Origin: an uncultured virus (IMG/VR IMGVR_UViG_3300022555_000016)
Lineage: Duplodnaviria; Heunggongvirae; Uroviricota; Caudoviricetes
Virus record (IMG/VR): IMGVR_UViG_3300022555_000016
Strand: one strand, 5' to 3'
Length of the DNA: 64,000 bases
The position numbers and the translations under genes are program-made. Each line of letters begins with the position of its first letter. Within the stretch, counting starts at the first letter, position 1. Under the pieces are notes generated by a model that ran no database searches, had not been told where the DNA came from, and saw only the letters and a list, made by a program, of their open reading frames with translations. Positions 8,060-62,249 of the stretch are shown here, piece after piece.

Positions 8060-8133
8060 TGGTGGACCAGGAGGTAATCGAAACCTCCTATTCCGATTAA
8101 AAGTCGGGCGCATTACCACTAAACTACAGGTCC
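8060..8133 (-). tRNA. tRNA-Lys(UUU) with encoded CCA
   Basis: GGACCTG-TA-GTTTAGTGGTAATGC-G-CCCGA CT TTT AA TCGGA-ATAG-GAGGT TTCGATT ACCTC-CTGGTCC-A-CCA; one acceptor mismatch and a weak D stem. Confidence 0.85.
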
Positions 8134-16512: not shown

Positions 16513-17159
16513 GAGTTATTTTAGAGAATTTTAGTTGGTTGAGTTGGTTGAGTTGGTTGAACCGAAAAGTTCAGTTAAACCGGATAGTGTTGTATTTGAA
16601 AGGACCACCGCAAACGATACCATGGACTACTATCCCGTTGTAGTTGGTAGCGGTGAACTTGGTGTGGTACGGCTCATCAGAACAACCGAGGTAGCTATAA
16701 CCCTCGATGAGTATGTTACGGAAACCGGCGTCCGTTAGAGTCTTAGTAGCACTGGCATCATCCGAATGCATAAAGCAAAGTGCAAATAAAAAGAAAGCCG
16801 CAAAACCAACGCAAAGAACAATAATTGAGACGTTCTTTGCATTTTGTTCTGAATAGTTTGACATTATTCATCTTCCCAAGGTTCAATTACGGTTATTTTA
16901 GTGACTACTGGTTTAACTCCGGGATTAGGCCAGTCGTAGTCAAACTCTATTACCTGTTTAGCTGTAGCACAAGCGTCTGGTAGCATTGGATGAGTTACGT
17001 GTACAAAAGTCTGAGGTGGGTAGTAATCTTTCCCGGACTCTACTTTTAAAACGGTGAAACCTAAATCCTCTAATAGAGTACAGTCTTCATCTACATAATT
17101 TAGTGGGTAGGTACCATCATCCTCATCAAACTCGCTTTCGTACACAATTACTGCTTGTT

Positions 17160-17678
17160 TCATTTATTAGAACCTTTGGTCAAAGAGCTTTTAAACTCAA
17201 TTATCTCGTCAAGAGTAGCGGGAACCATGAGGTCATCCCACCGACTGAGTGGTAGAGAGTAGTTATTAGCTTTACTGTAATAAGAACGCCCAAAAACTAC
17301 TGTAGGTTCTGAATTGAACTGATCATCTAGATCAATTACATTGATTACTTGATAGAAAACGCTATCGTAAGCTCGGTGACAAGAATCAATAGGCGTAGGT
17401 CGCCAAATGGACTTTTCTCTTGGGCGGGATAGAAAATCTTGATCTGGAATGTAGTTCTCTAGGTCTAAAGGATGATCACTGCCATATGTATAGATTTCAC
17501 CGTCAACGCCGTACAGACGATAGATATCAGGAGCATCAGGAATGAACCAAACTTGGTGGGTGCGAGAATCATGGTGATATTTGGTGTAAGAAGAATCTAA
17601 CGGTTTTACCATAAAGACAGGTTCACTGGGAAGATTAGGTCCACCTTTAGTGCGTAGCGGTTTAGTCCAGTCTAACAT
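17160..17678 (-). CDS. hypothetical protein with DWxKPLR domain
   Basis: MLDWTKPLRTKGG...DLEN; the same module is repeated in 49909..50898. Confidence 0.5.
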   Translation of the reverse strand: MLDWTKPLRTKGGPNLPSEPVFMVKPLDSSYTKYHHDSRTHQVWFIPDAPDIYRLYGVDGEIYTYGSDHPLDLENYIPDQDFLSRPREKSIWRPTPIDSCHRAYDSVFYQVINVIDLDDQFNSEPTVVFGRSYYSKANNYSLPLSRWDDLMVPATLDEIIEFKSSLTKGSNK

Positions 17679-17697
17679 TTTATTGATTCCTCATGAA

Positions 17698-17727
17698 GGT
17701 CCGGGTAATTAACAGATTACCCGGACC
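17698..17727 (-). terminator. hairpin terminator
   Basis: GGTCCGGGTAAT/ATTACCCGGACC. Confidence 0.55.
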
Positions 17728-18553
17728 CTTTTTGGTAATTAGGTAAACAACCGTTTGTAATTGTTATACTCGGAGGCTGTTACGCGACTGCTAGTTAGTA
17801 CGTCTTCAGCACAAGTCCAAGAAAACTTGTAAACAACTCCAGGACCTGTACTGTATGTCTTAGACACAAGAGTAACAACTACTGGGAAGAAGGTGTATTT
17901 GCCAGCACCAAAAGCAATTACTATGCCGTTATCTAGGTATTGAACATCGCCACAAACACAACACGTACCAGTAAACTCTTCACCGGTAACTACTGCAACT
18001 AGCTCAGAATCATCGTTGAACAGAGCTAACTTCTTGGTTGAAGTTATGAAAACTGGCTGATCAGCGGTTTTATAGGATGGAGCTAACGCTGCTTCTAAAG
18101 TTTCGACGCAAGGGATGCAATCGTAGGCCATAGTTTTTGAGTCCTTGTTACTAGGACAAATAGTCGTTAGGAGTACCACAGCAACCGCACTTACTTCAGG
18201 CCACTGATTACTGTATTGGCGTAGTAGTTATTAAAGGTGCTGTGGTTAAAGGTGCTGTGGTTATAGTAGCCGGAGCCGGAATGGTCGGTGGATGCAAAGG
18301 GAGGAGGTATTCTGATTTATAGCTTACGTTATGATCGCAAATCCGAAGAATACCCTTAGTGTCGTCTGGAGACTGCTTGAACCTAACAATACCGCCTATT
18401 GAGGCACTCTTACAAATGTCAGGAGGACCTAGATCAACTTCCTCAGTTTCTGGGTTCAAACCGTGGAACAGTCGTAGAAAATCAGATAGTTTCATTTTTA
18501 GAGCCTTTAATAATGATGAGAGGGAGAATAGGTTAATCTCCACTAGATTCAAG

Positions 18554-19978
18554 TCAAGAGTTGAAACTTAGCCAAGTTTCTTCCTTAGTCTGGTTGTTAC
18601 GCAGACGGACTTTAGTACCTTGAGCGGTTAAACTGTAGTCAATTACTTCGTAGCCCGGCACTACAGTCTTCATCAGGTCAGGTAACGACTTTAGCAGTTG
18701 GTCCAGGGGAGATTTTAGAGTGATTGTGGTAGTTGGACCACTGGTTAACATGTTAGTCAAGGTGACCTCTCCAGATAGGGTTACGTAAGAAGTGTTAGCA
18801 GAGGAGTTACTTGGGTCTTTTGCCACTTTGTTAGCGTCAACGTTGATAGCGTTATTGGAACACTTATAATCGGGAAAGGGTTGTTTGGGGCTACTTGGCT
18901 TAGCAGCAAGATTCGGTTCGTCAGTGAGGGAACCGTGACAAGAACACTGGGATTTAGAAGTAGAAGACTTGGAACGACCGACATCCTTTGTCGCGTTAAC
19001 ATGGTCGGAAACGTCCACGTGGATAATAGCTAGTTGGCTAGTTAACTGTAGGTCGTAGTAGTTATTGTCACCACCACGGTACGGTAGCAACTTTTCCTGG
19101 CGGAGGTGGGCAACCATGTCGTTAAAGGTGATAAGATAAAGTTCATTATTGTACATAGTATCAATAACAGACAGTTGGTCTGTTTGATTGAGCCAAGCAC
19201 GTAAGGCTTGATCTACTTTGAGATAGTGGACCGTGTGACCGCTGAGAAGACGGTTGGTGCTTAGGAAAATACCGCAACTTTGACGAAGGACTACGGAATT
19301 GATGTTTTGTTGTTTTAAGCTGTCTACTTGGTTAGGCAGGAGAGGGTTGAGAAGGTGTATAATGTCGGAAACAAATAGGGAACCATGAGGGTAGTTATGA
19401 AACTCTAGGAGGTTTTCTAGAACGAACAAGGTAATAGGGACCGTTTCTACTTTATTACTGAAGACGTTGAAGAATACAGCACTATGGGGAGCGTAGTAGG
19501 CTAGGGTCGTAGAATCAAAGACTTCACCTGGGCGGGGATAGTTAGGTAAGGTAGAGTCTACCCTACAGGACATCAAAGCTACACAACGGTTGTTGTACTT
19601 GTTCCGTTGTTGTAGTACGAATTCGGATAAGAGTTTAGTAGCGGTTAGAGTTAAATCAGTAGGAGGAAGAATGTATTTGAAACTGAAGGGGGTCAGGTTG
19701 GTCAGGTACTCACAGACGTTTAGGGGATTCATATTACTAGGGTAGACTAGGACTGTTATTTCGGCTCCGTGCTTTGTTATCAAGTTGTAGCGGCAAAACT
19801 GAACTATGCTAAGGTTAATGTTTGACGCGGCTGATAGGGATGATAGCAAGGCGTCACAGGAGTTTAGGTTGGAGCGACCTAGCTTGAACTGTGTTATCTC
19901 TGAAACCTTGTCCGATTCAACCATTACTAGGGCGGTTTGTGGATTTGAGGTTTCGGTCCAGTTAAAAGAGTTGGTCAT
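18554..19978 (-). CDS. hypothetical protein, divergent tail-sheath-like central region
   Basis: NQVDSLKQQNINSVV..GIFLSTNRLL and RCVALM segments resemble sheath proteins; weak. Confidence 0.35.
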   Translation of the reverse strand: MTNSFNWTETSNPQTALVMVESDKVSEITQFKLGRSNLNSCDALLSSLSAASNINLSIVQFCRYNLITKHGAEITVLVYPSNMNPLNVCEYLTNLTPFSFKYILPPTDLTLTATKLLSEFVLQQRNKYNNRCVALMSCRVDSTLPNYPRPGEVFDSTTLAYYAPHSAVFFNVFSNKVETVPITLFVLENLLEFHNYPHGSLFVSDIIHLLNPLLPNQVDSLKQQNINSVVLRQSCGIFLSTNRLLSGHTVHYLKVDQALRAWLNQTDQLSVIDTMYNNELYLITFNDMVAHLRQEKLLPYRGGDNNYYDLQLTSQLAIIHVDVSDHVNATKDVGRSKSSTSKSQCSCHGSLTDEPNLAAKPSSPKQPFPDYKCSNNAINVDANKVAKDPSNSSANTSYVTLSGEVTLTNMLTSGPTTTITLKSPLDQLLKSLPDLMKTVVPGYEVIDYSLTAQGTKVRLRNNQTKEETWLSFNS

Positions 19979-20373
19979 TTTTGTTGGAGTCCTTTAGGGG
20001 TTAGAGAATAACTGTGGTGCCGGTTACTACATAGTCTGAGTCGTAGGTTAAGGGTGTAGCGGTAGAAGGGTCACCTGGAGTAGACACTACAACCATCTTG
20101 TCGGCCAATTGTTGCAGGGATTCTTTTGACGGTGAGACTTTGGACGCCGGGACTTTGGACAAGTAGTTAACTACTTCCGATTCTGGGACACCTTTAGTCA
20201 TTCCTACATCCACCCCTTTGTTGTGCAACGCTTGACGCATTGAGCGAAAGGTGGAGTCTGGAATAGGTAGATAGGATTCTAGTGTATCGGACATTTTTGT
20301 TGTGGCCTTTAGGTTAGAGTCCAGTTGGTCATTTTCGCCTTCGGCGTTTTTGACCAACTGGACTTTTTAGGTT

Positions 20374-21858
20374 TTAGTCGGCTTCTAGGTCGGTCTCTAC
20401 AATCTCTTCCTTAGCAGAGATTCCCTTGCTCTGATTCTTCTCGGTCATTTTTTTGAAACCGACTCCACTGCGAATCTCAGCAAAGAAAGTCTCACGAAGA
20501 TCAATGTAAGACTTGTAACCCAACAGCTTAGCAGCTTCCTTCTTCTCGTTAGGACCAAGCTGTGCAGCTAAGATATATTTCTTGAACTCCAAGAAGGTTA
20601 CCTTCTTAGGTGTAGCTATGCTCTCGTTACCTACAAGACGGAATCCGGTACGCTTACCGTCAGCCAACCCTGTCATTAGACAATATTGGTAAGCGTCATA
20701 GGCAGGGCAGTAACCACGACCTTCTCCGTTACTATCCTTTGTCCAGACCCGCAAAAGACCGGTAAACCCGGCTGTACCGGCAGATTTATTCTTCGTAATT
20801 GTACAGGACTTATAAACATATTTATCATTGGCATCATCTACCCACGAAGCAGGCTCTAACTCGTCAACTTTGTACGAGGAAGCGTGAGGTACCCCAGTAG
20901 CAAAAAACCGGATACGCAACCCTGAGTAGAATTGAAGTGCCCTACCTCCGCATTCATATAGGGATTTGACCCTCCCCGGCCTCTCCCGTATCTGATTTAT
21001 GCCTAACAAGATAAATCCCTTGGACCTAAGCTTCCCTACAACCTTAGGTAGAAAAGTAGAAAATAGCCTAGCCGTCTCCGCAAGACCAGAAGTACCGGAA
21101 TCATCGCCAGTTTCGTCATGTGATTCTCCGAGGAGGGCCGGGAAAGAATCGCATATAACTATACCAGCAGGACCTGTTTCCTCGGTTTTCACCCAGTATT
21201 TGCCCGTACTCGAAAACAGCTTAGCACTAGGAGTCATCCCTAACGTCTTTAGCCGTTCGCGCACGCCATCCTTAGCAGAAGGCCACACAAGAAACCAAGA
21301 TTTCTCTTCTGGCATATACCTACGTTCTGGTAAGCTTAACAGCAAATCACGAGTATGTAAGAAAAAGGACTCAAACCCTGAACTATCACTATAAAAAGCT
21401 CGAGGACGACGTACCCAAGAACCATTAGAATCTTTAGTGCCAAAAACCTCCTCAACAGGAACTCCTAAAATATTACGTGCGTAGATTTCGTTTAAACTGT
21501 TCTCGGGATCCGCTAGCCTTATCAGCATGTTTTTCGTCTTAAGAGCCTCTCCGAAGACGTGAACTGAAGCTGTTGTTTTAGAGCTAGCCTCTTGACCAGA
21601 AAACTGTGTCATTGTACCACAAGGCAACCCTCCGCCCGTAAGTAAATCAAGAACTAAGTTTCCAGTGGAAAGAGGATTAAGGGAAGTTAACGCCGAAGTT
21701 GTAATGTTGTAAGCTTTGTTCAAAGACTCAATCTTATCAAGATAATAGTTGAGTAACGGATTGTCCATGTCAGCTACAGCAGCCGCTTCAGCATTTTTGG
21801 TAGCTTTTCGTTCTGCTAGAGTAGGCTTAGGTGGTGCATTTTTCTTGGCGAAAGCCAT
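20374..21858 (-). CDS. recA: RecA/UvsX-like recombinase
   Basis: LSTGNLVLDLLTGGGLPCG, Walker A GQEASSKTT, DPENS, CDSFPAL, INQIRE, GGRALQFYSGLRI, KNK. Confidence 0.9.
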   Translation of the reverse strand: MAFAKKNAPPKPTLAERKATKNAEAAAVADMDNPLLNYYLDKIESLNKAYNITTSALTSLNPLSTGNLVLDLLTGGGLPCGTMTQFSGQEASSKTTASVHVFGEALKTKNMLIRLADPENSLNEIYARNILGVPVEEVFGTKDSNGSWVRRPRAFYSDSSGFESFFLHTRDLLLSLPERRYMPEEKSWFLVWPSAKDGVRERLKTLGMTPSAKLFSSTGKYWVKTEETGPAGIVICDSFPALLGESHDETGDDSGTSGLAETARLFSTFLPKVVGKLRSKGFILLGINQIRERPGRVKSLYECGGRALQFYSGLRIRFFATGVPHASSYKVDELEPASWVDDANDKYVYKSCTITKNKSAGTAGFTGLLRVWTKDSNGEGRGYCPAYDAYQYCLMTGLADGKRTGFRLVGNESIATPKKVTFLEFKKYILAAQLGPNEKKEAAKLLGYKSYIDLRETFFAEIRSGVGFKKMTEKNQSKGISAKEEIVETDLEAD

Positions 21859-22076
21859 GGTAAAGATACCTTTCTAGGAGGATAATAGGGTTTAAAAAGT
21901 GTAGAAAACTTTGGCACTAATAAACAAAAATTGCGAAGTTGGTTGAAACACTAATAACTGGACGTTAACCCTTGCTAAATCAAACGCAAACATCAAAAGT
22001 TGAAATTTCTCATTTTACGTTTTGGGAATAACTTAATTTTGTTTAGTGAGAGAAATTTAAAAATTTACTGAAGGGT

Positions 22077-22499
22077 TTGACTATGTTAATCAAGAATAAG
22101 CGTAAAGCATATCATACAGTTGAGCAAAGGGTCTACTCTTGCCAATATCATGTAGTTTTATGCTCAAAGTTTAAACGTAAAGTTTTTGAAGGTGATGTTA
22201 AGAAAGCCTTTGAAAAATGGCTAAAAGATCAACAAGAGAACATTGGCTATACCCTTGTAGACTGCGAGATGGTTGTAGAGAGTATACACCTTGTACTAGA
22301 CGTAGACCCTAAAGTCGGAATACATAACGTAGTGGTTAGGATCAAGTCAGGCTCCTCAAACTATATCCGAAACAAATTTAAGGACGTAAAGACTAGGTTT
22401 CCATCCCTATGGTCACGCTCGTATTTTATTGCGTCTGTTGGGTCTGTTGCTCTACTAAGTATCAAGTCCTACATCCAAGCTCAAACAAAGTCCCAGTGA
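22077..22499 (+). CDS. tnpA: IS200/IS605 TnpA (Y1 HUH transposase) homolog, HUH degenerate
   Basis: VYSCQYHVV.CSKFKRK, IKSGSS, LWSRSYFIASVG, YIQAQ; the canonical DHVH reads ESIH. Confidence 0.9.
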   Translation: MTMLIKNKRKAYHTVEQRVYSCQYHVVLCSKFKRKVFEGDVKKAFEKWLKDQQENIGYTLVDCEMVVESIHLVLDVDPKVGIHNVVVRIKSGSSNYIRNKFKDVKTRFPSLWSRSYFIASVGSVALLSIKSYIQAQTKSQ

Positions 22500-22523
22500 C
22501 TTTTCAAGAAGGAGTGAACTAAT

Positions 22524-24611
22524 ATGTTTATAAATAGCTTAGGTCGTGTTTGTATAACTCCTGAAGAAGCTCAGGAAAAGGAAAACAAACTAGTTGAGAT
22601 GATTGATAAGGGTATTACAGATATAGCGGAATTGGCAACTCATTGGAATTGTCACTATGTTTCTATGTTACATTTCCTTAGAAGTAGGACTATTACTAGA
22701 AACGGACAAGACATACGGTTAGATATAGTGCTTAAAAATATTAGAGATGTTAAAAAGAAGGAAGCACATGATAAGATGATGTCATCAGTCAAAGCTTTAA
22801 TTGATGAGGGAGTAACTTCTATAAACGACTTAGCTATTAAACTAGAAGTTGACTATAACTTCATGTACCGTTTTCTAAGAAATAATAAACTGCTAAACCG
22901 GGGAAATGACGCAGGTCCTGTTAACTTCTTAAGAAACCGGACAACTTTAGACAAGACTTATGTTCTAAAATTGATAAAATCTGGTGTGGATTCTATCAGA
23001 GAATTAGCTGAAGAGGCGGGTGTTAATTATGAGACTATGGTTGACTTTCTTGATGATAAAGGTATCTCTAGAGAGAAGTTACTAGGTAGACGAGAACAGA
23101 ATAAAAGGGACTACCGAGATAACGTAGACAAGATAATAGAATTACTATCTAAAGGCTATACTAAAAAGGCGGTTGAGAAAGAGCTTGGTATAGGACGTAA
23201 AGGGGTTGATGTTATTTTAGACAGCCACCCTGAACTAAAAGATAGCTTTGAGAAGTCTCAAACCTCATATAATCTAAGTCTATACACTAATAGCATTGCA
23301 CCTCTGCTAAAAGCGGGAAAGTCTACTATAGAAATTAGTGAATTACTAAATCTTAAAGTAAGAGCTGTGCGTAGGGCTATAAAGGAGTTTAAAGAGAGTA
23401 AAAAGCCTGTTAAAACTAGGTTACTCGACAATAAGACTATGTCGAGGTTTAATAAACTGTTGGTTAAGGGTAGGTCCCTAGATAAAATTGCTAGAATTTT
23501 AGACTTACCTGCATCTTCTATGTTAGGCTATATCTATAGTAACCCACAGCTAATGGACTCTTATAACATTGTGGAAGACAAGTTTGGTTTAGAAAAGCAA
23601 ATAGCAGAAAAACTGTTTGCTTTATTAAGGTTAGGTACTACAGTAAGAGATATAAAAGATAGACTGAATATAAGCCACGCCTTATACTTTAGACTCAGGA
23701 AACGTTACGCAGAGGATTACGAAAAGGCTTTTCTAAAAAGCCACAATTTCGTAAATAAAATAGATACTGACACCAGAATGCTTCGCATAAAAGCAAACTA
23801 TTCCGCTCTTAAAAGTCGCTGCAAGAAACGCGGAATTCCTTTTGCTATTGAAATTGACGATGTTGAATATCCAGAGTATTGTCCAGTTTTAAATATAAAA
23901 CTAAACTATTTTGGTAAACGTGGTGAAGGAGATATGAGAAATTATTTTTCTTATGACAAATTTTACCCACGTAAAGGTTACCTCGTAGGTTTAGTATTTT
24001 GTATGAGTCACCGAGCTAACACACTTAAAAATGACCTTAAATCTTCAAGAGAATTAGGGTCAATAATTTCAGCTCTTAAAGGTGACCCTAAGTTTAAAAC
24101 TAACTATATCACAAACGATGACTACCGTATGAGTATGTACCGTAGGGCCAAGCACAGAGCTAAAAAGAAGGGTATGCCGTTTACTATAACGCCAGAAGAC
24201 ATCAAACTTCCTGCGAGATGTGTCGTGCTAGGCATACGTCTATGCTACACTAACGATACTATGAGATACAATTCGCCTTCACTTGATAGAATTGACAATT
24301 CGAGGGGGTACGAGCCCTCGAACATCTGGGTCATATCAGCGCGTGCTAATGGGCTAAAACTTGACGCTACTGTTGAAGAGCTTAAACTGTTGTTTAAGTG
24401 GATGCGTAAAGTAGAAGACGTTATGCTTATTAAGACTTTTAGAGACCTTAAACTCAACAAAACTAAAGGTGTTCCTCTATCATCTAAACCTAGAATTTCT
24501 ACAACACCTGTTGTAAAAGATCATCTTACTAAGTCTAAGGTGAATACTCCAGAAGACATTAAGGCAGAGATTAGTAGGCAGAGCCTGCTGAAACAACGAT
24601 CTCTATTTTAG
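22524..24611 (+). CDS. multi-HTH protein with two C-terminal HNH-like (beta-beta-alpha) nuclease domains
   Basis: About 6-7 HTH-like repeats; RxKKxGxPF..CPVL..SYDK/SLDRIDNSRGYEPSNIWVISARAN domains. Confidence 0.75.
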   Translation: MFINSLGRVCITPEEAQEKENKLVEMIDKGITDIAELATHWNCHYVSMLHFLRSRTITRNGQDIRLDIVLKNIRDVKKKEAHDKMMSSVKALIDEGVTSINDLAIKLEVDYNFMYRFLRNNKLLNRGNDAGPVNFLRNRTTLDKTYVLKLIKSGVDSIRELAEEAGVNYETMVDFLDDKGISREKLLGRREQNKRDYRDNVDKIIELLSKGYTKKAVEKELGIGRKGVDVILDSHPELKDSFEKSQTSYNLSLYTNSIAPLLKAGKSTIEISELLNLKVRAVRRAIKEFKESKKPVKTRLLDNKTMSRFNKLLVKGRSLDKIARILDLPASSMLGYIYSNPQLMDSYNIVEDKFGLEKQIAEKLFALLRLGTTVRDIKDRLNISHALYFRLRKRYAEDYEKAFLKSHNFVNKIDTDTRMLRIKANYSALKSRCKKRGIPFAIEIDDVEYPEYCPVLNIKLNYFGKRGEGDMRNYFSYDKFYPRKGYLVGLVFCMSHRANTLKNDLKSSRELGSIISALKGDPKFKTNYITNDDYRMSMYRRAKHRAKKKGMPFTITPEDIKLPARCVVLGIRLCYTNDTMRYNSPSLDRIDNSRGYEPSNIWVISARANGLKLDATVEELKLLFKWMRKVEDVMLIKTFRDLKLNKTKGVPLSSKPRISTTPVVKDHLTKSKVNTPEDIKAEISRQSLLKQRSLF

Positions 24612-24633
24612 ACTGGATGGAATCCAAAGGTGT

Positions 24634-24894
24634 CTAACCCAACACCTTGTAAAACTTTCCCTTAAATGCTAAACCTCTAGAGTAGTCCAAAGGTGTTCCT
24701 AAAACAGGACAATGTGTTACACTAGCTGCCTTTTTAATGTCCGCTGCACAGAGCCCAAAGGGTACACCTTCTAGTTTAGCCTGCGCTTCAATGTCTGTTA
24801 ACATTCTAGCTATTTCGCTCTCGTTGAATACTACGTTCTCAGACTTTTCCAACTTGCTAGTCTTCAACTTCTTCTTAAGCTTGCTTTCACCCAT
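24634..24894 (-). CDS. small protein with truncated CPVLG nuclease-associated module
   Basis: AKLEGVPFGL..DI...THCPVLGTPLDY; lacks the DRID..N catalytic part. Confidence 0.55.
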   Translation of the reverse strand: MGESKLKKKLKTSKLEKSENVVFNESEIARMLTDIEAQAKLEGVPFGLCAADIKKAASVTHCPVLGTPLDYSRGLAFKGKFYKVLG

Positions 24895-24961
24895 GTTACC
24901 TACTCCAGTTGTTCACTACACCCAATGTACCAATACAACCAACCTCAAAAGGAATCTAATC

Positions 24962-25111
24962 ATGACTAGCCAAAAGACTCCAGTAACCACTGAGACTTTC
25001 AAGCAACCTACCAGCCGTGCAGAAATTCTTGCACTTACGGGTATGAAAGAGCTTCCTACTCACTGTCCAGTTTTGGGTATCAAGCTGAACTACTCTAACC
25101 TACGTGACTAA
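24962..25111 (+). CDS. 49-aa protein with truncated CPVLG module
   Basis: AAGGA RBS, then MTSQK...ELPTHCPVLGIKLNY; followed by a terminator. Confidence 0.55.
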   Translation: MTSQKTPVTTETFKQPTSRAEILALTGMKELPTHCPVLGIKLNYSNLRD

Positions 25112-25134
25112 CCACTAAAAGCTAACACCACCCC

Positions 25135-25170
25135 AAGGGAGTAATTGGCACATTAGCCAATTACTCCCTT
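25135..25170. terminator. bidirectional-type hairpin terminator
   Basis: AAGGGAGTAATTGGC/GCCAATTACTCCCTT followed by a T run. Confidence 0.65.
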
Positions 25171-25185
25171 TTCTATTCTACCTAG

Positions 25186-25214
25186 ATATTAACACACCAA
25201 TTCTAGAAAGTCAA
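25186..25214 (-). promoter_or_regulatory. sigma70-type promoter
   Basis: TTGACT-17nt-TAATAT. Confidence 0.55.
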
Positions 25215-26240
25215 CTAAAAAGTTGCTGACTTAAAAGAAAAGTTGTCACGCCGCAAACTCTGGCAACTTAATCCAGTCACTATTTAGCACCGTGTAGATT
25301 TCAACCCAGGAGATGTCAGTGCTATAACGAATAACACACTGAACATCCCAAATGGACCCGGCTAACAAAGGCTTCAACTTGCCCATGATGAACTTAGCAT
25401 GGTGTGGCGTAAGCTGCTCTTCCAATCCAGCGGGTCCAGCGATATTACCCTCAAAGTTAACAGTAACATCGACATCAGGATTGTTTTTCGCAAACTCAAC
25501 CAAAGGGTTAGGAAAAATGTAAAGCCAGAGGGACAACTTTTTCTTAAGCCCACTCTGCAAATTGGTGTTATCCCAATCCGGCTGGTAGTTATCAATTAGG
25601 GTTAACAACCCCGCGAAGATACCTTCCAACTCATCATCGGAGTAAGGCCAGTTTTCTAGTTTTAGGACATTCCTACGCGTTGACAAGCTCTTAGCAATTG
25701 CCAGATTAAGCTTGGCGTCTAAACTACGAACGATAGTCATTGTTTTACCCTCCATCACACCACAAGTTCAACAAAACCAATGACTCTTTTAACTGATTTC
25801 TTCAGGCTCTTACCCAAACACTCAACCTCTTTGAACACGATCCGGTCCAGGACTAAATCGTCCAAGTAGTAACCCCAAATACCGTAAGGACCGTTGCTCT
25901 CTTTCCTGTTTCTCAGTCCGGTCATACGGCCAGGGTCACCAACTTCTTCCTCTTCCTTGTCATAAATACGAGAATAACCTAAATTAACACACTTGAACAA
26001 AGTTAACCTGCTAAACCCGGCTTTACACTTGAACTTCAGGTCTACTTCTCGCCGCAACGGAAACGTGAACCGTAGCACAATTTCACCACTATCTATTAAC
26101 ACCTCGTCACTAATAGGCAAATCGTCAGAGTAATCTACCACCTTCGGCGAATCTTCAAATTTAATCTTGATCATTATTTCTCTACCCCGAACCCGGTTGT
26201 TCAACTAGGAACAACCGGGTCCTTTTATCTACAGGTGTAT

Positions 26241-26423
26241 TTATTTTATTACCGGCTTGCCACCGTTAGCCTTTTGTTCAGCTCTAACTTCCTTAAGTAT
26301 TGAGTTAAAAGCTTCTTCCTCAATTTTTCTAAACTCTTCCTGAGTGTCATGAAACCGTTGACACACCCTTTTAGCCTCCTCAAATGAGTAGACTTTCTCT
26401 TGCTTATCTCCGCTGCGAGCCAT
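26241..26423 (-). CDS. hypothetical protein, tandem module copy 3
   Basis: KVYSFEEAKRVCQRF..EEAF..IL.EVRA. Confidence 0.6.
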   Translation of the reverse strand: MARSGDKQEKVYSFEEAKRVCQRFHDTQEEFRKIEEEAFNSILKEVRAEQKANGGKPVIK

Positions 26424-26428
26424 GACTT

Positions 26429-26599
26429 TTATTCTTCTTTATTACACTTACGTCGTGCCCGCACTCTCAATAAAACTTCCTGAAAAGCCTCTTCTTCTGA
26501 CTTTCGAATCTCTTCCCGATGCTCTTGAAACCACTTACAAGCTTCCTTAGCCCCTTCAAGAGAGTATATTACCTCAGATGTATCATCCGAACGAACCAC
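26429..26599 (-). CDS. hypothetical 56-aa protein, tandem module copy 2 (not in ORF track)
   Basis: GTG start; MVRSDDTSEVIYSLEGAKEACKWFQEHREEIRKSEEEAFQEVLLRVRARRKCNKEE. Confidence 0.65.
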   Translation of the reverse strand: MVRSDDTSEVIYSLEGAKEACKWFQEHREEIRKSEEEAFQEVLLRVRARRKCNKEE

Positions 26600-26604
26600 G
26601 ACTC

Positions 26605-27309
26605 TTACTCTTCTTTATTAGACTTATCTCGCGCTCTAACTTCCATTAGAATAGAGTGGAGCATTTCTTCCTTAAGTTTTTCAAAATCTTCCCGTGTGTC
26701 ATCAAACCACTTACACACTTCAACTGCTTCCTTAAAGGAATAGATTTTACCTACTTCTTTGTCCACATTACGAGCCATAACCTTTACTCCAGGTTTAGCA
26801 AAATGATAAAACAACTCTTTAGAGTTAAAAGTTGACTTAACTGGAGAAAGCTTATATCCTATAGAGTCAAGAACTTCAAATAACTCAAGGTAACGAGTCT
26901 TTGTGACTTTTTCATCCGTTAATTTTAAAACGAGGTAATCTGGATTCCCTGACTTAATCAAAACTACAGGTACCAAAGAATTTATCAATTTACTGATTTT
27001 AGTACTATCATTTCTTAAATCATATTTATCTATTAAAGCTTGAGACTCGGAGGTTACACCATCATGAACTATGATGTATTTGCCACTAACATTATCATTG
27101 ATAAATAAGCCGTAACCTAACTCAACATAAGATAACTTATAACGTAAACTAAAACAAACGCTTAAGGTTGGAAAAGAATTCGCATATTCTGCTACTTTCT
27201 TAAGGTAAACTATTGCACCTCCTGATTCTCTAACCTCCCAATCAGCTTTATCATTAAACTTCCATTTGGACAAGTGTGCTTCAATGTACTGGTATAAGTC
27301 TTTAAACAT
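26605..27309 (-). CDS. hypothetical protein carrying tandem module copy 1 at the C-terminus
   Basis: C-terminal MARN..KIYSFKEAVEVCKWF..EVRARDKSNKEE. Confidence 0.6.
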   Translation of the reverse strand: MFKDLYQYIEAHLSKWKFNDKADWEVRESGGAIVYLKKVAEYANSFPTLSVCFSLRYKLSYVELGYGLFINDNVSGKYIIVHDGVTSESQALIDKYDLRNDSTKISKLINSLVPVVLIKSGNPDYLVLKLTDEKVTKTRYLELFEVLDSIGYKLSPVKSTFNSKELFYHFAKPGVKVMARNVDKEVGKIYSFKEAVEVCKWFDDTREDFEKLKEEMLHSILMEVRARDKSNKEE

Positions 27310-27324
27310 AGTTACTACTCCTTC

Positions 27325-27600
27325 CTAACAACCTAACCCTGCAACACAGGCACAAACATCAGAACTGGAAATTGGGCTAGAGCCTTTCCAAGTAGACTTC
27401 TCTACAACGTCTACGTTATTATCAGAGTTGTCAGGATCAATTGAAGCATTGTACATTACCCACTTATTACCAATAGCAATGTACGCTTGATCGCTATTCT
27501 TATCATAGTAGATGTCATAGTCTTTAAAAGTAGTAGGTTGCTTATCTAACACGCCTAAAAGATTTAATTCAGTCATTGATTTTACCTCCCTACGAACCAC
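27325..27600 (-). CDS. small protein with C-terminal CACVAGLGC motif (paralog A)
   Basis: Paralog of 28036..28323; start may be the later Met (MTELN). Confidence 0.6.
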   Translation of the reverse strand: MVRREVKSMTELNLLGVLDKQPTTFKDYDIYYDKNSDQAYIAIGNKWVMYNASIDPDNSDNNVDVVEKSTWKGSSPISSSDVCACVAGLGC

Positions 27601-28035
27601 TAAAACTTTAGAATCTCTAGTGGTTCGTCATATAAAACTAAACTTACTCTACAAGAACCAGTGTACCAGCATCACCAAGAACTGATTCTGCCCAAGCATA
27701 CAACTTTTCCCGAAGGTCAGGATCAATAATATCCAGAAACACGTAGTCACAAGGGTTTTCGGGTAACTCTCCAATGTTTTCGGCCGTAAACGAACCCCAA
27801 ACTATTAAATCTCCTTCTTTAACGAGATCGTTGTACGCTTTAGCAAAATGTGTGATTAACTCTTTAGTTGTTGATTCCTCGCTGAGAAAACGAAGCCTAA
27901 GCTTGGAATCAAACAAAGTTAAACCTAGAGCACTAGCCATTGCTAATTTTACTTTACCATGACCAACTTCAGCAACAATTTTAACTGTACGCATAACTTC
28001 TCTCCACAGACTAGATTAAAAATTACGAACCCACC

Positions 28036-28323
28036 CTAACAACCTACTCCTGCAACACAGGCACAAACGTCGGAACTATTTGAACCACTGTCTCCGACCC
28101 AACTACTAACTGTAGCGTCTGTACCACGTTGAACGCTAGAGGCAAGTGGAGTGTATGACAGGTTGTACATTACCCACTTACCGTCAATAGCAATGTACCC
28201 TTGACCCGTATTCTTATCATTATAGAAATCATAGTCATCAAACTTAGTAGGTTGCTGGTCTAGTTCACCTAAATAGTTTAGCGCATTCATAACAACACCC
28301 TTTCCTAGATTAAAAACTACCAA
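28036..28323 (-). CDS. small protein with C-terminal CACVAGVGC motif (paralog B)
   Basis: LG.LD.QPT.F.DYD.Y.DKN..Q.YIAI..KWVMYN.S shared with paralog A. Confidence 0.6.
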   Translation of the reverse strand: MVVFNLGKGVVMNALNYLGELDQQPTKFDDYDFYNDKNTGQGYIAIDGKWVMYNLSYTPLASSVQRGTDATVSSWVGDSGSNSSDVCACVAGVGC

Positions 28324-28678
28324 CGATGTCCGATTTGGACAACGCAGCGTATTTCAAAAACCCACGAGCAACGTCCCAGTCAAGTTGGGTTATTAGTTTT
28401 CTATTGTACTCCCACCAGTCAGGCAACCAGTCTGGAGAAAACAATAAAGGTACTACTTCATCAGCAGCTTGCACCAAATAATCCGGGATGCTATAGCAAC
28501 CTTCCCTAGCCTCCCAGGTGTCAGGATCATGCCTAATCTTGAAGTCTTCTGGGTTAAGCTCTGGTTTGTCTACCTGACCACTCCAATAGTCTACAAGAGT
28601 GCAGCATACCCTAAAGTTTAGGGACTTAGTGTTGGGACTATCTCCAGCAAACATTATTGCACCCACAACGCAAACTCC

Positions 28679-29113
28679 TTAACTCAACCAAGCTTCTTCT
28701 AAAGTCTTCACTGGAACCGGCTTTGGTTCCTTACTGTCGTAGGACATGTCAACCACATTGACAATCCTACCTATATTTACAGGAAAACAGCCAAAGAACT
28801 TGGTACCGTCAATCTCAACAGTCTGTTTACAACCGACCCATGTTTTATGATCCATTACCCTAGTAAACCAACTGTAGAAATATTCTTTTGATTCCTTACA
28901 GCCTGTTAGATCAAAAGATAGTTTTCCTGGAATGCGTCTAAGAGGTATGCCAGTCTCCCTATCACCAACATGCTCTTCCCTAAAGACAGGAATCACGCCC
29001 AATATCCAATCAGTCCTACCTCTAGTTATCTCTTCTTTAAGGTACTCTTGCTCATCAGCAGTTAGATTAAAACTGTTGATCTCTACCGAATCGTTACCGA
29101 TCTTGATAAACAT
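28679..29113 (-). CDS. hypothetical protein, T4 gp19 tail-tube-like segment
   Basis: IPGK.SF...YFYSWF...FFGCFPVNIG...MSYD. Confidence 0.4.
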   Translation of the reverse strand: MFIKIGNDSVEINSFNLTADEQEYLKEEITRGRTDWILGVIPVFREEHVGDRETGIPLRRIPGKLSFDLTGCKESKEYFYSWFTRVMDHKTWVGCKQTVEIDGTKFFGCFPVNIGRIVNVVDMSYDSKEPKPVPVKTLEEAWLS

Positions 29114-29790: not shown

Positions 29791-29928
29791 TGGTCGCAGG
29801 AGAGAATCGAACTCTCGTCTCGGCGCTGACCGTGTTCTACCATTGAACTAGAGAGTGCAAACACTCCCGAACGGAATTGAACCGCTCATCTCGGTAGGGT
29901 CCGTGTTTTACCATTAAACTACTGCAAC
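29791..29928 (-). ncRNA. double tRNA-like RNA (two D arms, two T arms, no normal anticodon arm)
   Basis: GTTGCAG-TA-GTTTAATGGTAAAAC-A-CGGACCCTACCG-AGAT-GAGCGGTTCAATTCCGTTC-GGGAGTG TTTG CACTCTC-TA-GTTCAATGGTAGAAC-A-CGGTCAGCGCCG-AGAC-GAGAGTTCGATTCTCTC-CTGCGAC-CA. Confidence 0.85.
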
Positions 29929-31100: not shown

Positions 31101-31916
31101 CTACTTATCCTTGGTTAAGACGACCGGATCAGCACCATCAAAGATGACTTCGACCCGGTTGGTGACGGTAGCGAAGGAAGGCATATCCAACCTAACAATC
31201 TCCCACCGTTCAATTGGACCAACAGGACGGTGTTTCTCTGGTATTTTACTCAGAACAGTAGCGTCCAACTCTTTAACTACTCGGCGCTTTTGCACGAAAG
31301 TTCCACGTTTAAAGAATGCTGGGTAGTTGTTCCAGTTGACACCTTTCTCAAAAAGCATCTCTTGGATGACACGGCAGTTCTTCTTGAACAACTGCTTAGA
31401 CGAATAGTAGTGCCGACCAGCCATCTCTATTGAGTTGCGGGTAGCGTCCCGTTCCCGCCACAGGATCATGTTTGCAGTTTCAATCAACGTCGGTAGGTTG
31501 ATTATTCTAGCGTCAAAGTGTGGCAGTAGTTTAGCTACCCTATCCGGCCAGTGCTTAACGGCCAAAGAAGTAAACTTTGCCGTGGTCATGGCTGCTAGGA
31601 CTGAGTGCAACTTGCTAAGCTTACCGTTGAAGAACGTTTGACTGGTAGGGTCAGGCTGGTACCACACTAGAGAGATTTCGTCAGACTGGGTGTAGCCCAG
31701 ATTAGCGTTAGCCTCAGCAACCAACCACTCAGTTGTTTGAATCATACACTCTGACAGGCGAAGATCGTAAGGCCGTTCCATTCCATGAGTAAACTTAGAG
31801 AAAGAACGACCGTCAACCCTAGCATAAATAGGGATCAAAGGAAGAAGGTGTCGGTCAGTTTCCCGCCGCTCATAGTCCTTCATCCTATCGCCAAAGTCAT
31901 CACGACGGCTAGACAT
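31101..31916 (-). CDS. thg1: tRNA(His) guanylyltransferase Thg1-like 3'-5' polymerase
   Basis: GDRMKDYE, RVDGRSFSKFT, YTQSDEISL, FDAR, WRERDATRNSI, FKRG. Confidence 0.95.
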   Translation of the reverse strand: MSSRRDDFGDRMKDYERRETDRHLLPLIPIYARVDGRSFSKFTHGMERPYDLRLSECMIQTTEWLVAEANANLGYTQSDEISLVWYQPDPTSQTFFNGKLSKLHSVLAAMTTAKFTSLAVKHWPDRVAKLLPHFDARIINLPTLIETANMILWRERDATRNSIEMAGRHYYSSKQLFKKNCRVIQEMLFEKGVNWNNYPAFFKRGTFVQKRRVVKELDATVLSKIPEKHRPVGPIERWEIVRLDMPSFATVTNRVEVIFDGADPVVLTKDK

Positions 31917-33180: not shown

Positions 33181-33866
33181 CTACAGACATGTCACATTCT
33201 CCTTGTTAAAGAGACTATCTAAACTAGAGTGTAAGTCGGCAATTGACCCATTATTTTCAACGACGTGGTCAAAAGGCCAACCGATCCACTGCCACTCACT
33301 CTCATGAACTACGTTGTCGTCTTTATCTCTAATTACTACAGGACGCAAGAAATTCTCGCTATAGGTGGACTTAAGATAAACAACTTCGTCGTGCCAATCA
33401 GGCAATGGACCACGTTGACCCAGACTAATATGCCGCCTAGTTCTTTAATCATCTGAAGTTCATTAACGAATCTACAGTCAGTAATAACAACTTTGTCTTT
33501 ATTTAATAACCGACGTTTCAACGATAAAACCCAAATGTCAGGATGTAGACAGTCCCGGAAGATTTCAGTACCTAAGTACTGTAGAGCAAAGCGCGGAGTA
33601 AACCTCGGTGATATTTTACTGCCTTTGTGATTAGGCCAATCAAGGTGCTGTTCCCACCAATGGTCTGGAGTCTCACGCCACTACCTAGACTCTGGTGTAT
33701 CACCTTCCAATAACTTCCGGTCCCAACCGAACAAAGCAGCAGTTATGTTTTTAAGCGACTTGGCAAACGAGTCTTTGGTGAAACCTTTATTCTCGGTTAA
33801 CCAGTTACCGATTGTGTCTTTACCTGCCGACTTCCAACCGCAGATTCCAATAATTTGTTTGGTCAT
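33181..33866 (-). pseudogene. deoxynucleoside monophosphate kinase, disrupted by an in-frame TAG (33681-33683) and a 1-nt deletion near 33416
   Basis: IIGICGWKSAGKDT..SFAKSLK..ESR*WRE..TPRFALQYLGTEIFR..DIWV..VITDCRFVNE..GGILVWV/RGPLPDW..HESEW..NNGSI. Confidence 0.8.
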
Positions 33867-53053: not shown

Positions 53054-54787
53054 TCAACCGACGTAGTGATTGCCTCTAATTAACCGTGAGTCCTTCTGAA
53101 TCTGAATCTTGAAAGGTGTTGTTAGTACCTTCTTGACCCAGTCTTGGTCAACCGTAGGCAATCCCATACGAGTCTTGAACTTTCTAAGGACGTTTACTGA
53201 GGATTGAACGTCAGAGTGAACATGAATCCCTTTAGCGGTGATATACAAGCCTCGTCGGACCCGTGTACCACTGTAATGAGGACTGGGAGCACCCTTAACA
53301 TAGCATGGAGGGAGATAGTCACCGTCCATAGCAGACCCTTTACTAGTGTGTGATTCATTCTGTAAGTGGACTGTAATACCTACTGCTACGCACTTGTAGG
53401 TTAACATTTCCACGAACCGATTGAAGGGGAGCCTAGTAAAGTTCTTCATACCCTTAGCAAACTGTTTCCAGTCTAGATTCCTACCGATAACTAGGATTAC
53501 GACACCCTTCTCCACGAGCAGCTTCACTAGCGTGCTGGAAACGTTGTGGAGGTAGTGGTCCAGTCTATTTCTAAGCTTATTGTAAGCGGCTTGAATCCTC
53601 TTTGAAGAGTTCTGTGGGACTTTAGAAGTTAGAATCTGACTCAACTCCTGATCGTACTCAGGAGGCTCGGGGTACAATGAATCGTGAGTAGCAAAAGCTT
53701 GCTGAACCATCAAACCTAGCATAAGGTAGTTAAACGGGTTGGACTCAGGGTCTTTCAACTCCCTAAGACGTTTCCTCTTCAACTCTAGCTCTTCTTTAGC
53801 TTTAGTACGTTCGTCTATTAACTGACGTTCCCTAGCCGGTTTAGACCAGTAGAGGTCCCGTTTAAGCTCTTCTATCTGGTAGTAGGACCAAAGTAATAGA
53901 GACTTCAGAATCCAACCGTTAAAGGCTATAGGCTTTGGATTACCTTCGATTACCCCAGCGGCTGTAACGTTTAACCCTAGGTCAAAGCTTGCTATGGCTT
54001 GTAGTTCTTCCTGCTTAGCAGTCCAGTTACCTGTAATCTCTTCGTTGTAGACTACTTCTACGTTGTAACCACCTACTATTGGTATGTAGCGTACTTCCGT
54101 GATTCCAACGTCTCTTAGGACAGGTTTACCCCTGGAATCCTTCTTTATAGCTTGTTTACCGTTAGCGTCGGTAACAACTTGAGGTTGCATGTGGAGGGTG
54201 AAGGGTATTTCCTGTTTAAACTCAGGATTCTTAGGGCAAAGGGTGATGATTCCCTTGGGAGCAATAGACTCTGATAACCTAGCGCCTTTGACCTGTTTCC
54301 TATCAGAATCAATGATCTGACCACCGGACATGGTCTGGTAGGTAAATTTAACAGGCTTACGACTGTCAGTCCTACGGATGTACTTATCACCCTTGAATCC
54401 AGGCGGTTGAGGGCAAGCCTTGTACTTCTTAGGAAACTGTTTCTGGAGTTCCTTGCTTTTAGTCCACTCCCAGAAGTCAAACCAAGCTGCTTCGAAGGAC
54501 TTCCAGTCGTCATGGAGCATCTTAACGGTAGCTTGAGCTACTTTAGCAGGTAACCGTTGGTACTCTAGAGTCGGTTTTAACAGCTTAACTAGCTCTGGTA
54601 GACTAGGAATCCTACGCCGTTGGAAGCCTGGTTTCTTATAGTTGTCTTGGTTGTAATTCCAGATTTCTAGTAGAAGGTGGAGACCTACATGATAGAGTTT
54701 GGAGGACAAAAAGCAAGTACGATCAATACTCCTATCCCAAGGGTGTTTTGGACCTACAAACTGTTTTTGAGTCCTAGTTTCTAACAT
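53054..54787 (-). CDS. tnpB: TnpB-family RNA-guided nuclease, enlarged (577 aa), zinc-finger-less clade
   Basis: RuvC-I FDLGLN; RLDHYLHNVS; LVIGRNLDWKQ; NF..LPF..F..MLTYKC..VGI; NESHTSK; SGTRVRRGLY; RuvC-III HSDVQSSVNVLRK. Confidence 0.9.
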   Translation of the reverse strand: MLETRTQKQFVGPKHPWDRSIDRTCFLSSKLYHVGLHLLLEIWNYNQDNYKKPGFQRRRIPSLPELVKLLKPTLEYQRLPAKVAQATVKMLHDDWKSFEAAWFDFWEWTKSKELQKQFPKKYKACPQPPGFKGDKYIRRTDSRKPVKFTYQTMSGGQIIDSDRKQVKGARLSESIAPKGIITLCPKNPEFKQEIPFTLHMQPQVVTDANGKQAIKKDSRGKPVLRDVGITEVRYIPIVGGYNVEVVYNEEITGNWTAKQEELQAIASFDLGLNVTAAGVIEGNPKPIAFNGWILKSLLLWSYYQIEELKRDLYWSKPARERQLIDERTKAKEELELKRKRLRELKDPESNPFNYLMLGLMVQQAFATHDSLYPEPPEYDQELSQILTSKVPQNSSKRIQAAYNKLRNRLDHYLHNVSSTLVKLLVEKGVVILVIGRNLDWKQFAKGMKNFTRLPFNRFVEMLTYKCVAVGITVHLQNESHTSKGSAMDGDYLPPCYVKGAPSPHYSGTRVRRGLYITAKGIHVHSDVQSSVNVLRKFKTRMGLPTVDQDWVKKVLTTPFKIQIQKDSRLIRGNHYVG

Positions 54788-59723: not shown

Positions 59724-59778
59724 CGTAAAAAGAGTCCAGTAGCACGAAAACTACTGGACTTCAAGGACACATTGACTG
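59724..59778 (-). repeat. composite repeat copy 1: CGTAAAAAGA-hairpin-CACATTGACTG
   Basis: Same flanks as 62191..62249 around a different hairpin (GTCCAGTAG/CTACTGGAC). Confidence 0.6.
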
Positions 59779-60842: not shown

Positions 60843-61651
60843 CTAAAGCGGATACTTTAAGTAAAGTATCGCCGATTCCATATAGTCAGTATTGTCTTTA
60901 AGCAGCCCTAATCCCGAGTTGCAACAGTAACATAAGTAACCTCTAATAGCACCACTTACGTGGCAATGATCTATAGTTAAAGATTCTACTTCTCCACAAA
61001 TGTCACACGCTCTAGGTTTAATGTCTAGCATACGTCTTAAGTACTCCTTACTAGATTCATAACTGGTACCTAATAAATTTGTTGTAACGTAAGTTATTAG
61101 GCTTTCAATCTTCTTAGAGAAGTGCCTATTTTCACAAATGTAGTCTGCTACGTTATATATAGGCTTCCTAATGTTAGCAGAAATAGTGTCAATATTAACA
61201 CCTTCATCCCACATAGTTAGTATACTATTAAACGTATCTTTATGCTTACGGACTCTTTCTTTTAAAGCTTCCTCAGAATTAGCGTGTTTTATAGATTCTT
61301 CATGTATAGCTTTACGTTTATTACGTTGAAATTCCGTATTAGTAGGTATTCCAAAGGAATTTAAAATTCTACTAACTGTAGTACAACCAACATTATATTT
61401 AATGGCTAAAGAACTAATGTTAGCGGAGGGAGTTTCATACTCACGACATAAGGCTACTTTTTGCTCATAAGATAAAAAGGTTTTAGACTTACTTTTAATA
61501 ATTGAAGTGTCTAAACAAAAATCTATATCATGTTTCTTAAGCACTTTTTAATCTTATAAACTGTAGTACTAAACCTAACAGCCGTGCCATTTAAGTTTGA
61601 ACTTTTGGTATAGAAATCGACAATGGTTAATTCTTGCTCTTGAGTAAACAT
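60843..61651 (-). CDS. multi-HTH endonuclease VII protein, N-terminal HTH joined via a frameshift at 61545-61549
   Basis: CDICG..IDHCHVSGAIRGYLCYCCNSGLG; upstream ATG 61651 with AGAAGGA RBS encodes MFTQEQELTIVDFY..KIKK out of frame by one nt. Confidence 0.8.
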
Positions 61652-62190: not shown

Positions 62191-62249
62191 CGTAAAAAGA
62201 CAAAAGCCTTAGGAGATTATCTCCTAAGGCTTTAAGATCACATTGACTG
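62191..62249 (-). repeat. composite repeat copy 2 / terminator after hfq
   Basis: CGTAAAAAGA-CA-AAAGCCTTAGGAGA/TCTCCTAAGGCTTT-AAGAT-CACATTGACTG. Confidence 0.6.

Follow-up and report, generated by a model that had tools for sequence, protein, structure and literature searches.

How does a small transposase gene of the IS200/IS605 type come to be followed, in place of tnpB, by a gene for a 695-residue protein of helix-turn-helix (HTH) repeats and two HNH-like modules? This question is raised by a locus in the uncultured virus IMGVR_UViG_3300022555_000016 (IMG/VR), of which we analysed a stretch of 64,000 nucleotides (nt), called the window below. We read the window as part of an uncultured freshwater jumbo phage; nearly all of its genes lie on the minus strand. 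A sequence-only reading had drawn attention to this pair of genes (locus 1) and to a similar layout towards the far end of the window (locus 2), and had proposed an undescribed mobile element or a domesticated transposase–nuclease module. Our best explanation is that the cassettes at both loci are specific to this phage lineage and are not active insertion sequences. As to their origin, the account that we tentatively prefer, which is plausible and falls short of probable, is that they are relics: tnpA paralogs that no longer transpose and behind which free-standing homing endonuclease genes have moved into the nuclease position, co-transcribed with them and lying beside core genes of DNA metabolism.

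Anatomy of the two loci

Locus 1 is, as had been noted, the only large plus-strand unit in the window, is AT-rich (GC content 0.35, vs. about 0.41 for the window) and diverges from a gene for a RecA/UvsX-like recombinase. Its features, with those on either side, are as follows.

20374-21858, minus strand: RecA/UvsX-like recombinase, a core gene divergent from the locus 1 unit (Pfam RecA, 2.9e-20; UvsX-like phrog_97, 7.9e-29)
22083-22499, plus strand: TnpA1, an IS200-type Y1 HUH protein of 138 amino acids (aa), in its database form from the ATG at 22083
22507-22514, plus strand: Shine-Dalgarno sequence AGAAGGAG, 9 nt ahead of the nuclease ATG (read from the sequence)
22524-24611, plus strand: 695-aa multi-HTH protein with two HNH modules
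22524-23720, plus strand: N-terminal array of about seven HTH units, residues 1-399 (Pfam HTH families; units counted by eye)
23751-24098, plus strand: HNH module 1, degenerate, residues 410-525 (phrog_3322; alignment)
24099-24473, plus strand: HNH module 2, residues 526-650, with an intact catalytic core, SLDRID..GY..N..VIS.RAN.LK (alignment)
24634-24894, minus strand: remnant of the phrog_3322 nuclease family, N-terminal half only (phrog_3322, 1.1e-05, profile positions 27-99; alignment)
24962-25111, plus strand: second truncated remnant of the phrog_3322 family, 49 aa (alignment, CPVLGIKLNY box; no Pfam match)
25135-25170, plus strand: perfect 15-bp hairpin with a T-run, downstream of the remnants, the sole strong plus-strand terminator-like site after the unit

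The open reading frame (ORF) of TnpA1 (22077-22499, plus strand) is assigned to Pfam Y1_Tnp (4.8e-29) and to NCBIfam transpos_IS200 (2e-29). Its stop codon ends at 22499 and the nuclease ATG stands at 22524, which leaves the 24-nt gap with a ribosome-binding site that the sequence-only reading described. The many HTH repeats and two HNH-like modules that it saw in the 695-aa protein are also borne out: the array matches HTH_7 (2.2e-12), HTH_23 (5.2e-09), NCBIfam HTH_Cbp1 (2.5e-09) and, more weakly, HTH_28, HTH_29 and others, and the ‘endonuclease’ family phrog_3322 matches at 2.1e-45 in two stretches. When both modules were aligned with 49 distinct homologues, the near-invariant residues were C46, P47, V48, L49, G50, I51, L53, D68, G75, Y76, N80, S85, A88, N89 and K92. 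Module 2 has all of these except P47, and module 1 lacks G50 and N80, in keeping with the earlier view that the first module is degenerate and the second intact. Members of this family carry Asp in the SLDRID motif where many HNH enzymes carry His. They occur as small stand-alone ‘endonuclease/HNH’ genes in 106 phage records, and at 67 viral-contig loci the ORF always has a single module and a length of 80-256 aa. A word-index search for the architecture of the whole 695-aa protein among 7,998 candidates returned only the protein itself and one weak match of 446 aa; the sequence in the window is the major database form.

A structural model of module 2 had a mean pLDDT of 87.9. Foldseek placed the rare-cutting HNH restriction enzyme PacI (PDB 3ldy, 3m7k) first among solved structures (E 6.3e-3, probability 1.00, TM 0.48/0.46), no solved structure being matched at E ≤0.001, and ScoMcrA, EcoKMcrA, colicin E7 and the Cas9 HNH domain came next in the ranking. 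VIA-align, which is independent of Foldseek, also put PacI at the top of 48,161 chains (Z 6.2, rmsd 3.6, 89 residues). Identity to PacI is about 21-22% and the scores of both aligners are middling; modest as they are, they are consistent with the PHROG annotation and, as far as a model can tell, module 2 appears to have a PacI-like HNH (beta-beta-alpha-metal) fold. In a model of both modules together (residues 406-655), pLDDT was 40-59 across module 1. A complex prediction of TnpA1 with the 695-aa protein, made without control runs, scored 0.00, which speaks neither for nor against a contact between them.

Both phrog_3322 remnants 3′ of the unit break off directly after the conserved CPVLG box, and the presence of two such truncated relatives suggests that genes of this family have invaded and decayed here more than once. 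Inverted- and direct-repeat searches and DNA folding gave no repeats in the flanks of locus 1 and no hairpins apart from that at 25135-25170. Contigs from four metagenome runs were identical over positions 17000-29000, with no joints, indels or loose ends, which is weak evidence as contigs drop rare forms.

At locus 2 the layout recurs, as the sequence-only reading had claimed for 59.8-62.1 kb, on the minus strand and with nucleases of another family.

62796-63998: large subunit of ribonucleotide reductase (RNR), beside locus 2
62191-62249, minus strand: left flank, with the box CAGTCAATGTG..CTT.AAG, a terminator hairpin (62203-62233) and TCTTTTTACG
61671-62084, minus strand: TnpA2, 137 aa (Y1_Tnp, 1.2e-29)
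60843-61544, minus strand: nuclease of 233 aa, HTH and Endonuclease_7 (PF02945, 1.2e-16)
59801-60814, minus strand: nuclease of 337 aa, multi-HTH and Endonuclease_7 (PF02945, 1.9e-15)
59724-59778, minus strand: right flank, with the same box, a different terminator hairpin (59733-59760) and TCTTTTTACG

Both nucleases score above the Pfam cut-off for PF02945 (60.8 and 57.0 bits, vs. 23.6), and they are paralogs of one another (32% identity over 204 aa, 2e-27). On the gene strand, the locus is bracketed by a direct repeat, each copy being a hairpin set between a 20-nt and a 10-nt box; this motif occurs only twice in the window, once on each side. The two hairpins are terminator-like and their stems are wholly unrelated. 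The repeat could be a vestige of element ends or a duplicated regulatory cassette; in IS200, according to the account in PMC4513863, the left-end hairpin doubles as a terminator. Immediately upstream of TnpA2, with a perfect 15-bp terminator hairpin between the two, is an Hfq-like gene (62304-62540, minus strand; Pfam Hfq, 4.1e-14). Hfq represses IS200 tnpA in Salmonella, as the same paper describes (PMC4513863), and the position of this gene may be a coincidence.

Both visible TnpA genes of the window are therefore immediately followed, on the same strand, by protein-guided nucleases of homing type, as had been proposed, and a PHROG scan (1e-5) of the other 111 ORFs of the window found no further HNH or EndoVII-type gene. 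Terminator-like sites at both loci lie only outside the units. Family scans, with Rfam scans at gathering and lax thresholds, found neither TnpB nor a guide RNA at either locus. The earlier statement that TnpB, omega-RNA and end hairpins are missing thus stands for locus 1; for the window it needs amending, since a gene for a TnpB-like protein of 577 aa lies at 53057-54787 (minus strand), unlinked to either locus. That protein matches OrfB_IS605 (5.3e-09, residues 383-439), Cas12f1-like_TNB (8.8e-07, residues 455-533) and phrog_506 (8.3e-18); the phrog_506 match begins at residue 224, and the N-terminal third matches none of these three families. No TnpA gene adjoins it.

Catalytic residues and kinship of the TnpA proteins

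Aligned with IS608 TnpA (2a6m/2vhg; 4e-24), TnpA1 has ESIHLV in place of DHIHIL and KSYIQAQ in place of KQYIENQ. Its HUH motif is accordingly S-I-H, with Ser at the position of IS608 H64, and the catalytic Tyr and Gln are retained. TnpA2 (3e-31) has an intact HUH motif (H-V-H), and KQYIENQ is replaced by LAFIELQ, so that Phe stands in the place of Y127. The IS608 protein works through hybrid active sites that combine the HUH motif of one monomer with Y127 of the other, and mutation of H64, H66 or Y127 inactivates it, as set out in PMC3597680. Judged by these residues, neither protein carries the full IS200/IS605 catalytic set, and the Y1 fold is present in both.

An exhaustive HMMER search of 1.84 billion representatives with TnpA1 gave 282 matches at 1e-10, and the best match other than TnpA1 itself was TnpA2 (38% identity, 1.7e-28). 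A further relative, P0026, has no gene in the window. It shares 39% identity with TnpA2 and 34% with TnpA1, and has H-V-H together with Trp at the position of the catalytic Tyr. The metal-site Gln is retained in all three proteins. P0026 occurs on 29 contigs, TnpA1 on 28 and the 695-aa protein on 24, and for each of them the longest contig is the same one, of 208,448 bp. Because of this shared contig, P0026 is probably a third TnpA paralog of the same phage, encoded outside the window.

In trees of 116 and 61 rows, TnpA1, TnpA2 and P0026 formed a group with SH-aLRT values of 90 and 89, respectively; these were quick trees, and grouping by long-branch attraction has to be kept in mind. The clade within which the three proteins nest is well supported and has 17 rows; TnpB accompanies 11 of its 14 remaining TnpAs. 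Their terminal branches measure 1.47-1.68 changes per site, vs. a median of 0.15, and are therefore about ten times longer.

Substituted catalytic residues are found more widely. When 135 TnpA matches of 120-210 aa were aligned, 86 had both histidines, 91 had Tyr and Gln, and 21 had Phe and Gln, part of the remaining rows being truncated sequences; non-canonical columns were frequent among the more distant matches. Some relatives (for example P0025, P0070 and P0072) have lost both catalytic features, and a scan with the degenerate relative P0070 gave no match. A HUH-poor group of TnpA-like proteins from metagenomes and metagenome-assembled genomes (MAGs) comprises P0020, P0036, P0044, P0051, P0058, P0081, P0097, P0098, P0102, P0114, P0117, P0122, P0124, P0131, P0139 and P0152, and the locus L153 1679-2128 goes with them. 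None of these 16 rows combines both HUH histidines with Tyr. Fifteen of them cluster (SH-aLRT 86), many have Phe for Tyr, and Gln and the fold residues are kept. One, P0020, from a Pectinatus MAG, stands by itself, flanked by genes for OmpH and a HAD-hydrolase; one relative has TnpB, and one contig stops at the gene.

The pairing in other genomes and further features of the window

The sequence-only reading had suggested a search for the same adjacency in other contigs, and it was not found there. We took as a comparison set the best 80 TnpA loci of viral contigs (L001-L080). The ORF downstream of TnpA could be scored at 72 of them, and in 56 it was TnpB (OrfB_IS605 or Cas12f1-like_TNB); no HTH-nuclease stood directly behind TnpA at any of the 72, and the pairing was seen at none of the 80. 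A tblastn search with the three nucleases of the window against these 80 loci produced a single weak Endonuclease_7 match, about 4 kb away and on the opposite strand. In all four phage isolates that have TnpA relatives, an annotated transposase of TnpB size adjoins tnpA (two are named OrfB), and none has the pairing. Conversely, within 3 kb of the 67 loci of the phrog_3322 nuclease family there was no TnpA and no HTH array of a similar kind, and a scan of viral contigs with an Endonuclease_7 alignment gave no match. By the refuting condition that the sequence-only reading had set itself, these results count against a conserved family of elements.

Nor do the ends of the units resemble those of known relatives. 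A BLAST comparison of the loci found no shared DNA similarity between the flanks of loci 1 and 2, and neither set of flanks was like the ends of the 14 clade relatives, the TnpB-bearing ones included. The units have much in common with elements of the IS605/IS608 type (ISHp608, L001-L080, Geobacillus virus E3 and Saccharomonospora phage PIS 136), which contain the nearest relatives of these TnpAs: the fold and length of TnpA are the same, and a small tnpA is immediately followed, in the same orientation, by a larger nuclease gene. In contrast to those elements, the loci of the window lack TnpB and a guide RNA, the catalytic residues are substituted, locus 1 has no subterminal hairpin ends, and the two TnpA copies are 38% identical, where IS605/IS608-type copies are about 100% identical.

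Another system in which a genome keeps a Y1 TnpA relative without TnpB is that of the TnpA-REP proteins, or RAYTs, which are described as domesticated Y1 transposases (PMC8266576, PMC3333891). We rejected membership of this group: against NCBIfam REP_Tyr_transpos, TnpA2 scored 15.4 bits, with a cut-off of 80, and TnpA1 gave no match. No repeated family of REP-like hairpins was seen in the window. To our knowledge, RAYTs retain their catalytic residues.

The composition of the genes is uneven. GC content at third codon positions (GC3) is 0.396 in TnpA1 and 0.457 in TnpA2, the other 70 phage ORFs of at least 100 aa having 0.391 (sd 0.066), and it is 0.315, 0.261 and 0.308 in the three nuclease genes. 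This contrast fits tnpA genes that are long resident and nuclease genes that arrived later or are differently constrained.

The stretch of DNA is present in eight metagenome runs from three studies (freshwater and lake), and no RNA dataset is listed among the matching runs. None of 50,697 phage records is a near match to the window. Scans of viral contigs with the 695-aa protein, TnpA1 and RecA yielded no relatives of the phage, and the sole return of a metagenome scan with RecA was a contig identical to the window.

Besides the recombinase, the Hfq-like protein and the RNR large subunit, the window encodes a primase, SbcD, SSB, a sigma factor and a Thg1-like enzyme, the last being a tRNA-His guanylyltransferase-like gene at 31104-31916 (minus strand; phrog_4717, 2.3e-80). 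An Rfam scan of the window at gathering thresholds gave two tRNA matches and nothing else: a tRNA-Lys(UUU) gene at 8060-8133 (minus strand), and a second, weak match at 29862-29928. A deoxynucleoside monophosphate kinase gene (phrog_139) is seemingly split into ORFs at 33184-33405 and 33684-33866 (both minus strand), which cover profile positions 81-134 and 215-261 and are about 280 nt apart; no Rfam intron family was matched in the window-wide scan. Finally, a motif of about 55 aa (..YSFEEAK..C.WF....EEF.K.EEEAF..L..VRA...) is common to 26241-26423, 26429-26599 and the C-terminus of 26605-27309 (all minus strand), three adjacent genes that form a small tandem paralog family without a family match.

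Origin and meaning of the pairing

According to the account that we tentatively prefer, the lineage of the phage would have acquired an IS605-type element (tnpA-tnpB) in the distant past, and the tnpA of this element would have multiplied into the two visible paralogs and probably three in all. These would have shed TnpB and recognisable ends, and then one catalytic residue each, while keeping the fold. The slot behind each visible tnpA would have come to be occupied by protein-guided homing endonuclease genes. In the 695-aa protein, the seven HTH units would read a long asymmetric site and the intact PacI-like HNH module would cut, its degenerate sister being probably structural only. Each unit is probably a single operon, because the gaps are short, a ribosome-binding site is present and no terminator lies between the genes. 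During a mixed infection, the nuclease would cut relatives without the nuclease near the position of its own gene, repair would copy the cassette, and the neighbouring tnpA gene would be co-converted. The TnpA-like proteins would no longer transpose, and would persist as hitch-hikers or with a new role. The computation gave the layout of the loci, the families of their proteins, the substituted catalytic residues, the faster divergence of the TnpAs and the lack of the pairing in the other genomes examined; homing, co-transcription and the order of events are our inference.

Large phages are well known to carry free-standing homing endonucleases, such as the Seg and Mob proteins of T4 and HNH enzymes of the I-HmuI type. 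The units of the window resemble such genes in coupling a small nuclease domain to modular DNA binding, in being AT-rich and intergenic, in lying by genes of DNA metabolism and in having decayed remnants nearby. They differ in the seven HTH units and tandem nuclease modules of the 695-aa protein, and in the TnpA gene that heads the operon. As described in section 3.2 of PMC13565253, free-standing homing endonucleases combine a modular DNA-binding region with a small nuclease domain and lie beside conserved genes.

Several observations weigh against this account. The tnpA-first, same-strand layout is found at both TnpAs and the PHROG scan showed no other such nuclease in the 64 kb, which hints that the layout means more than a shared permissive island. 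That a compact phage genome retains three intact TnpA paralogs with the fold preserved speaks for selection on TnpA itself, and is not accounted for by hitch-hiking. Between the 695-aa and the 337-aa protein, three units of the HTH arrays are weakly alike and in register (BLASTP E 7e-4), with a Smith-Waterman z of 5.7 and none of 300 shuffles scoring as high; the z-score is inflated, since shuffling also destroys the generic HTH pattern, and any two HTH arrays may score so. This likeness would fit one ancestral TnpA–nuclease module in which the nuclease domain was swapped. Furthermore, six TnpAs with Y-x-H (Y-V-H) directly precede intact TnpB genes (L033, L036, L039, L040, L065 and L066), so that some elements that look live may be able to do without the first HUH histidine. 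Finally, neither the contigs of the four runs nor the metagenome scan contained an allele or relative without the nuclease, the form on which homing would act.

If there were no link at all between the two kinds of gene, decaying IS200 remnants and independent homing genes might simply have gathered in insertion-tolerant, AT-rich spots by core genes. That each locus is an AT-rich island next to a classic homing target (the recA/uvsX-like gene and the RNR large subunit, respectively) would suit such a coincidence, as would the turnover shown by the nuclease remnants at locus 1, the different families of the nucleases at the two loci, the different composition of TnpA and nuclease genes, and the failure to find the pairing elsewhere. 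We consider it rather unlikely, since the TnpA ORFs are intact rather than decayed, TnpA1 and its nuclease share an orientation that is otherwise unused, and, with random orientation and order, two loci that each begin with TnpA, keep to a single strand, have short gaps and lack an internal terminator would arise, by our estimate, about 1 time in 16. The converse proposal, of a tight functional link, is that TnpA1 has been exapted as an obligate heterodimer with TnpA2 and the third paralog, to act as a nickase that works with the HTH-array nucleases. In this scheme, TnpA1 would supply its Tyr in trans to the HUH site of its partner, and the enzyme would nick single-stranded DNA at a hairpin and stay covalently bound, without strand transfer; it might, for example, start recombination or replication, or complete a double-strand break with a nicking HNH enzyme. 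The losses are indeed complementary (S-I-H with Tyr in TnpA1, H-V-H with Phe in TnpA2 and H-V-H with Trp in P0026), and they mirror an engineered IS608 heterodimer of H64A and Y127F subunits (He et al., 2013), which has a single trans-active site and, in the experiments described there, cleaved the right end (RE) and the RE-LE junction (LE, left end) robustly, with no detectable strand transfer (PMC3597680). The retention of the metal-site Gln in all three paralogs, the persistence of intact ORFs on branches as long as about 1.5 changes per site, and the operon-like layout at both loci agree with this. The parallel has its limits: the natural paralogs are 38% identical and encoded about 40 kb apart, the substitution is Ser and not Ala, and the heterodimer is predicted. 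In addition, three paralogs that each lost one of two features would include both kinds by chance about 3/4 of the time (our estimate); P0025, P0070 and P0072 lost both, so that degeneration without complementation does occur; the adjacency was seen only in this genome; and heterodimers, DNA substrate and nuclease contact are all surmised. Exaptation of this kind is thus unlikely on present evidence. The fuller version, in which an IS605 transposase has given rise in the phage to a small set of HUH nickases that have a single active site and work only as heterodimers, each paralog in an operon with a long-site, protein-guided HTH nuclease, to give a nicking and cutting module free of TnpB and RNA that would serve homing or the initiation of recombination, seems decidedly doubtful.

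It is very improbable that the units are active composite transposons, which TnpA would excise and insert and in which the protein-guided nuclease would replace TnpB in restorative homing at the emptied donor site. A homing-like role for TnpB has been described (10.1101/2023.03.14.532601; PMC10690162), the direct-repeat flanks of locus 2 have the orientation of IS605 ends, and in IS200 the left-end hairpin also acts as a terminator (PMC4513863). Against these points, each TnpA is without a residue whose mutation inactivates IS608 TnpA (PMC3597680), the hairpin stems at locus 2 are wholly different, locus 1 has no flanking repeats, the two copies are only 38% identical where near-identical ones would be looked for, and the contigs of the four runs contained no joints, with the weakness already mentioned. 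A 2026 review, in its section 6.3, regards protein-guided nucleases as almost impossible partners in restorative homing for any transposon that lacks a fixed target (PMC13565253). The incomplete catalytic sets, the lack of common ends or of repeats around locus 1, and the divergence of the copies also lead us to set aside the undescribed mobile element that the sequence-only reading had put forward.

An abstract-level search of the literature turned up no phage in which HNH or EndoVII homing nucleases are coupled to a Y1 TnpA, and no TnpA paralogs that complement one another naturally. With its seven HTH units and tandem HNH pair, the 695-aa protein has an unusual architecture for a long-site nuclease. 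The complementary losses predict that homodimers of these TnpAs would be dead and that a heterodimer would be a cleavage-only nickase; if this is true, it would be, as far as the literature searched shows, the first natural split-site Y1 HUH enzyme. As both visible tnpA genes are wired to protein-guided nucleases, this genome puts to the test the ‘almost impossible’ view stated in section 6.3 of the review (PMC13565253). The pairing shows either homing genes colonising the nuclease slot of transposon relics, or pairs of proteins that cooperate.

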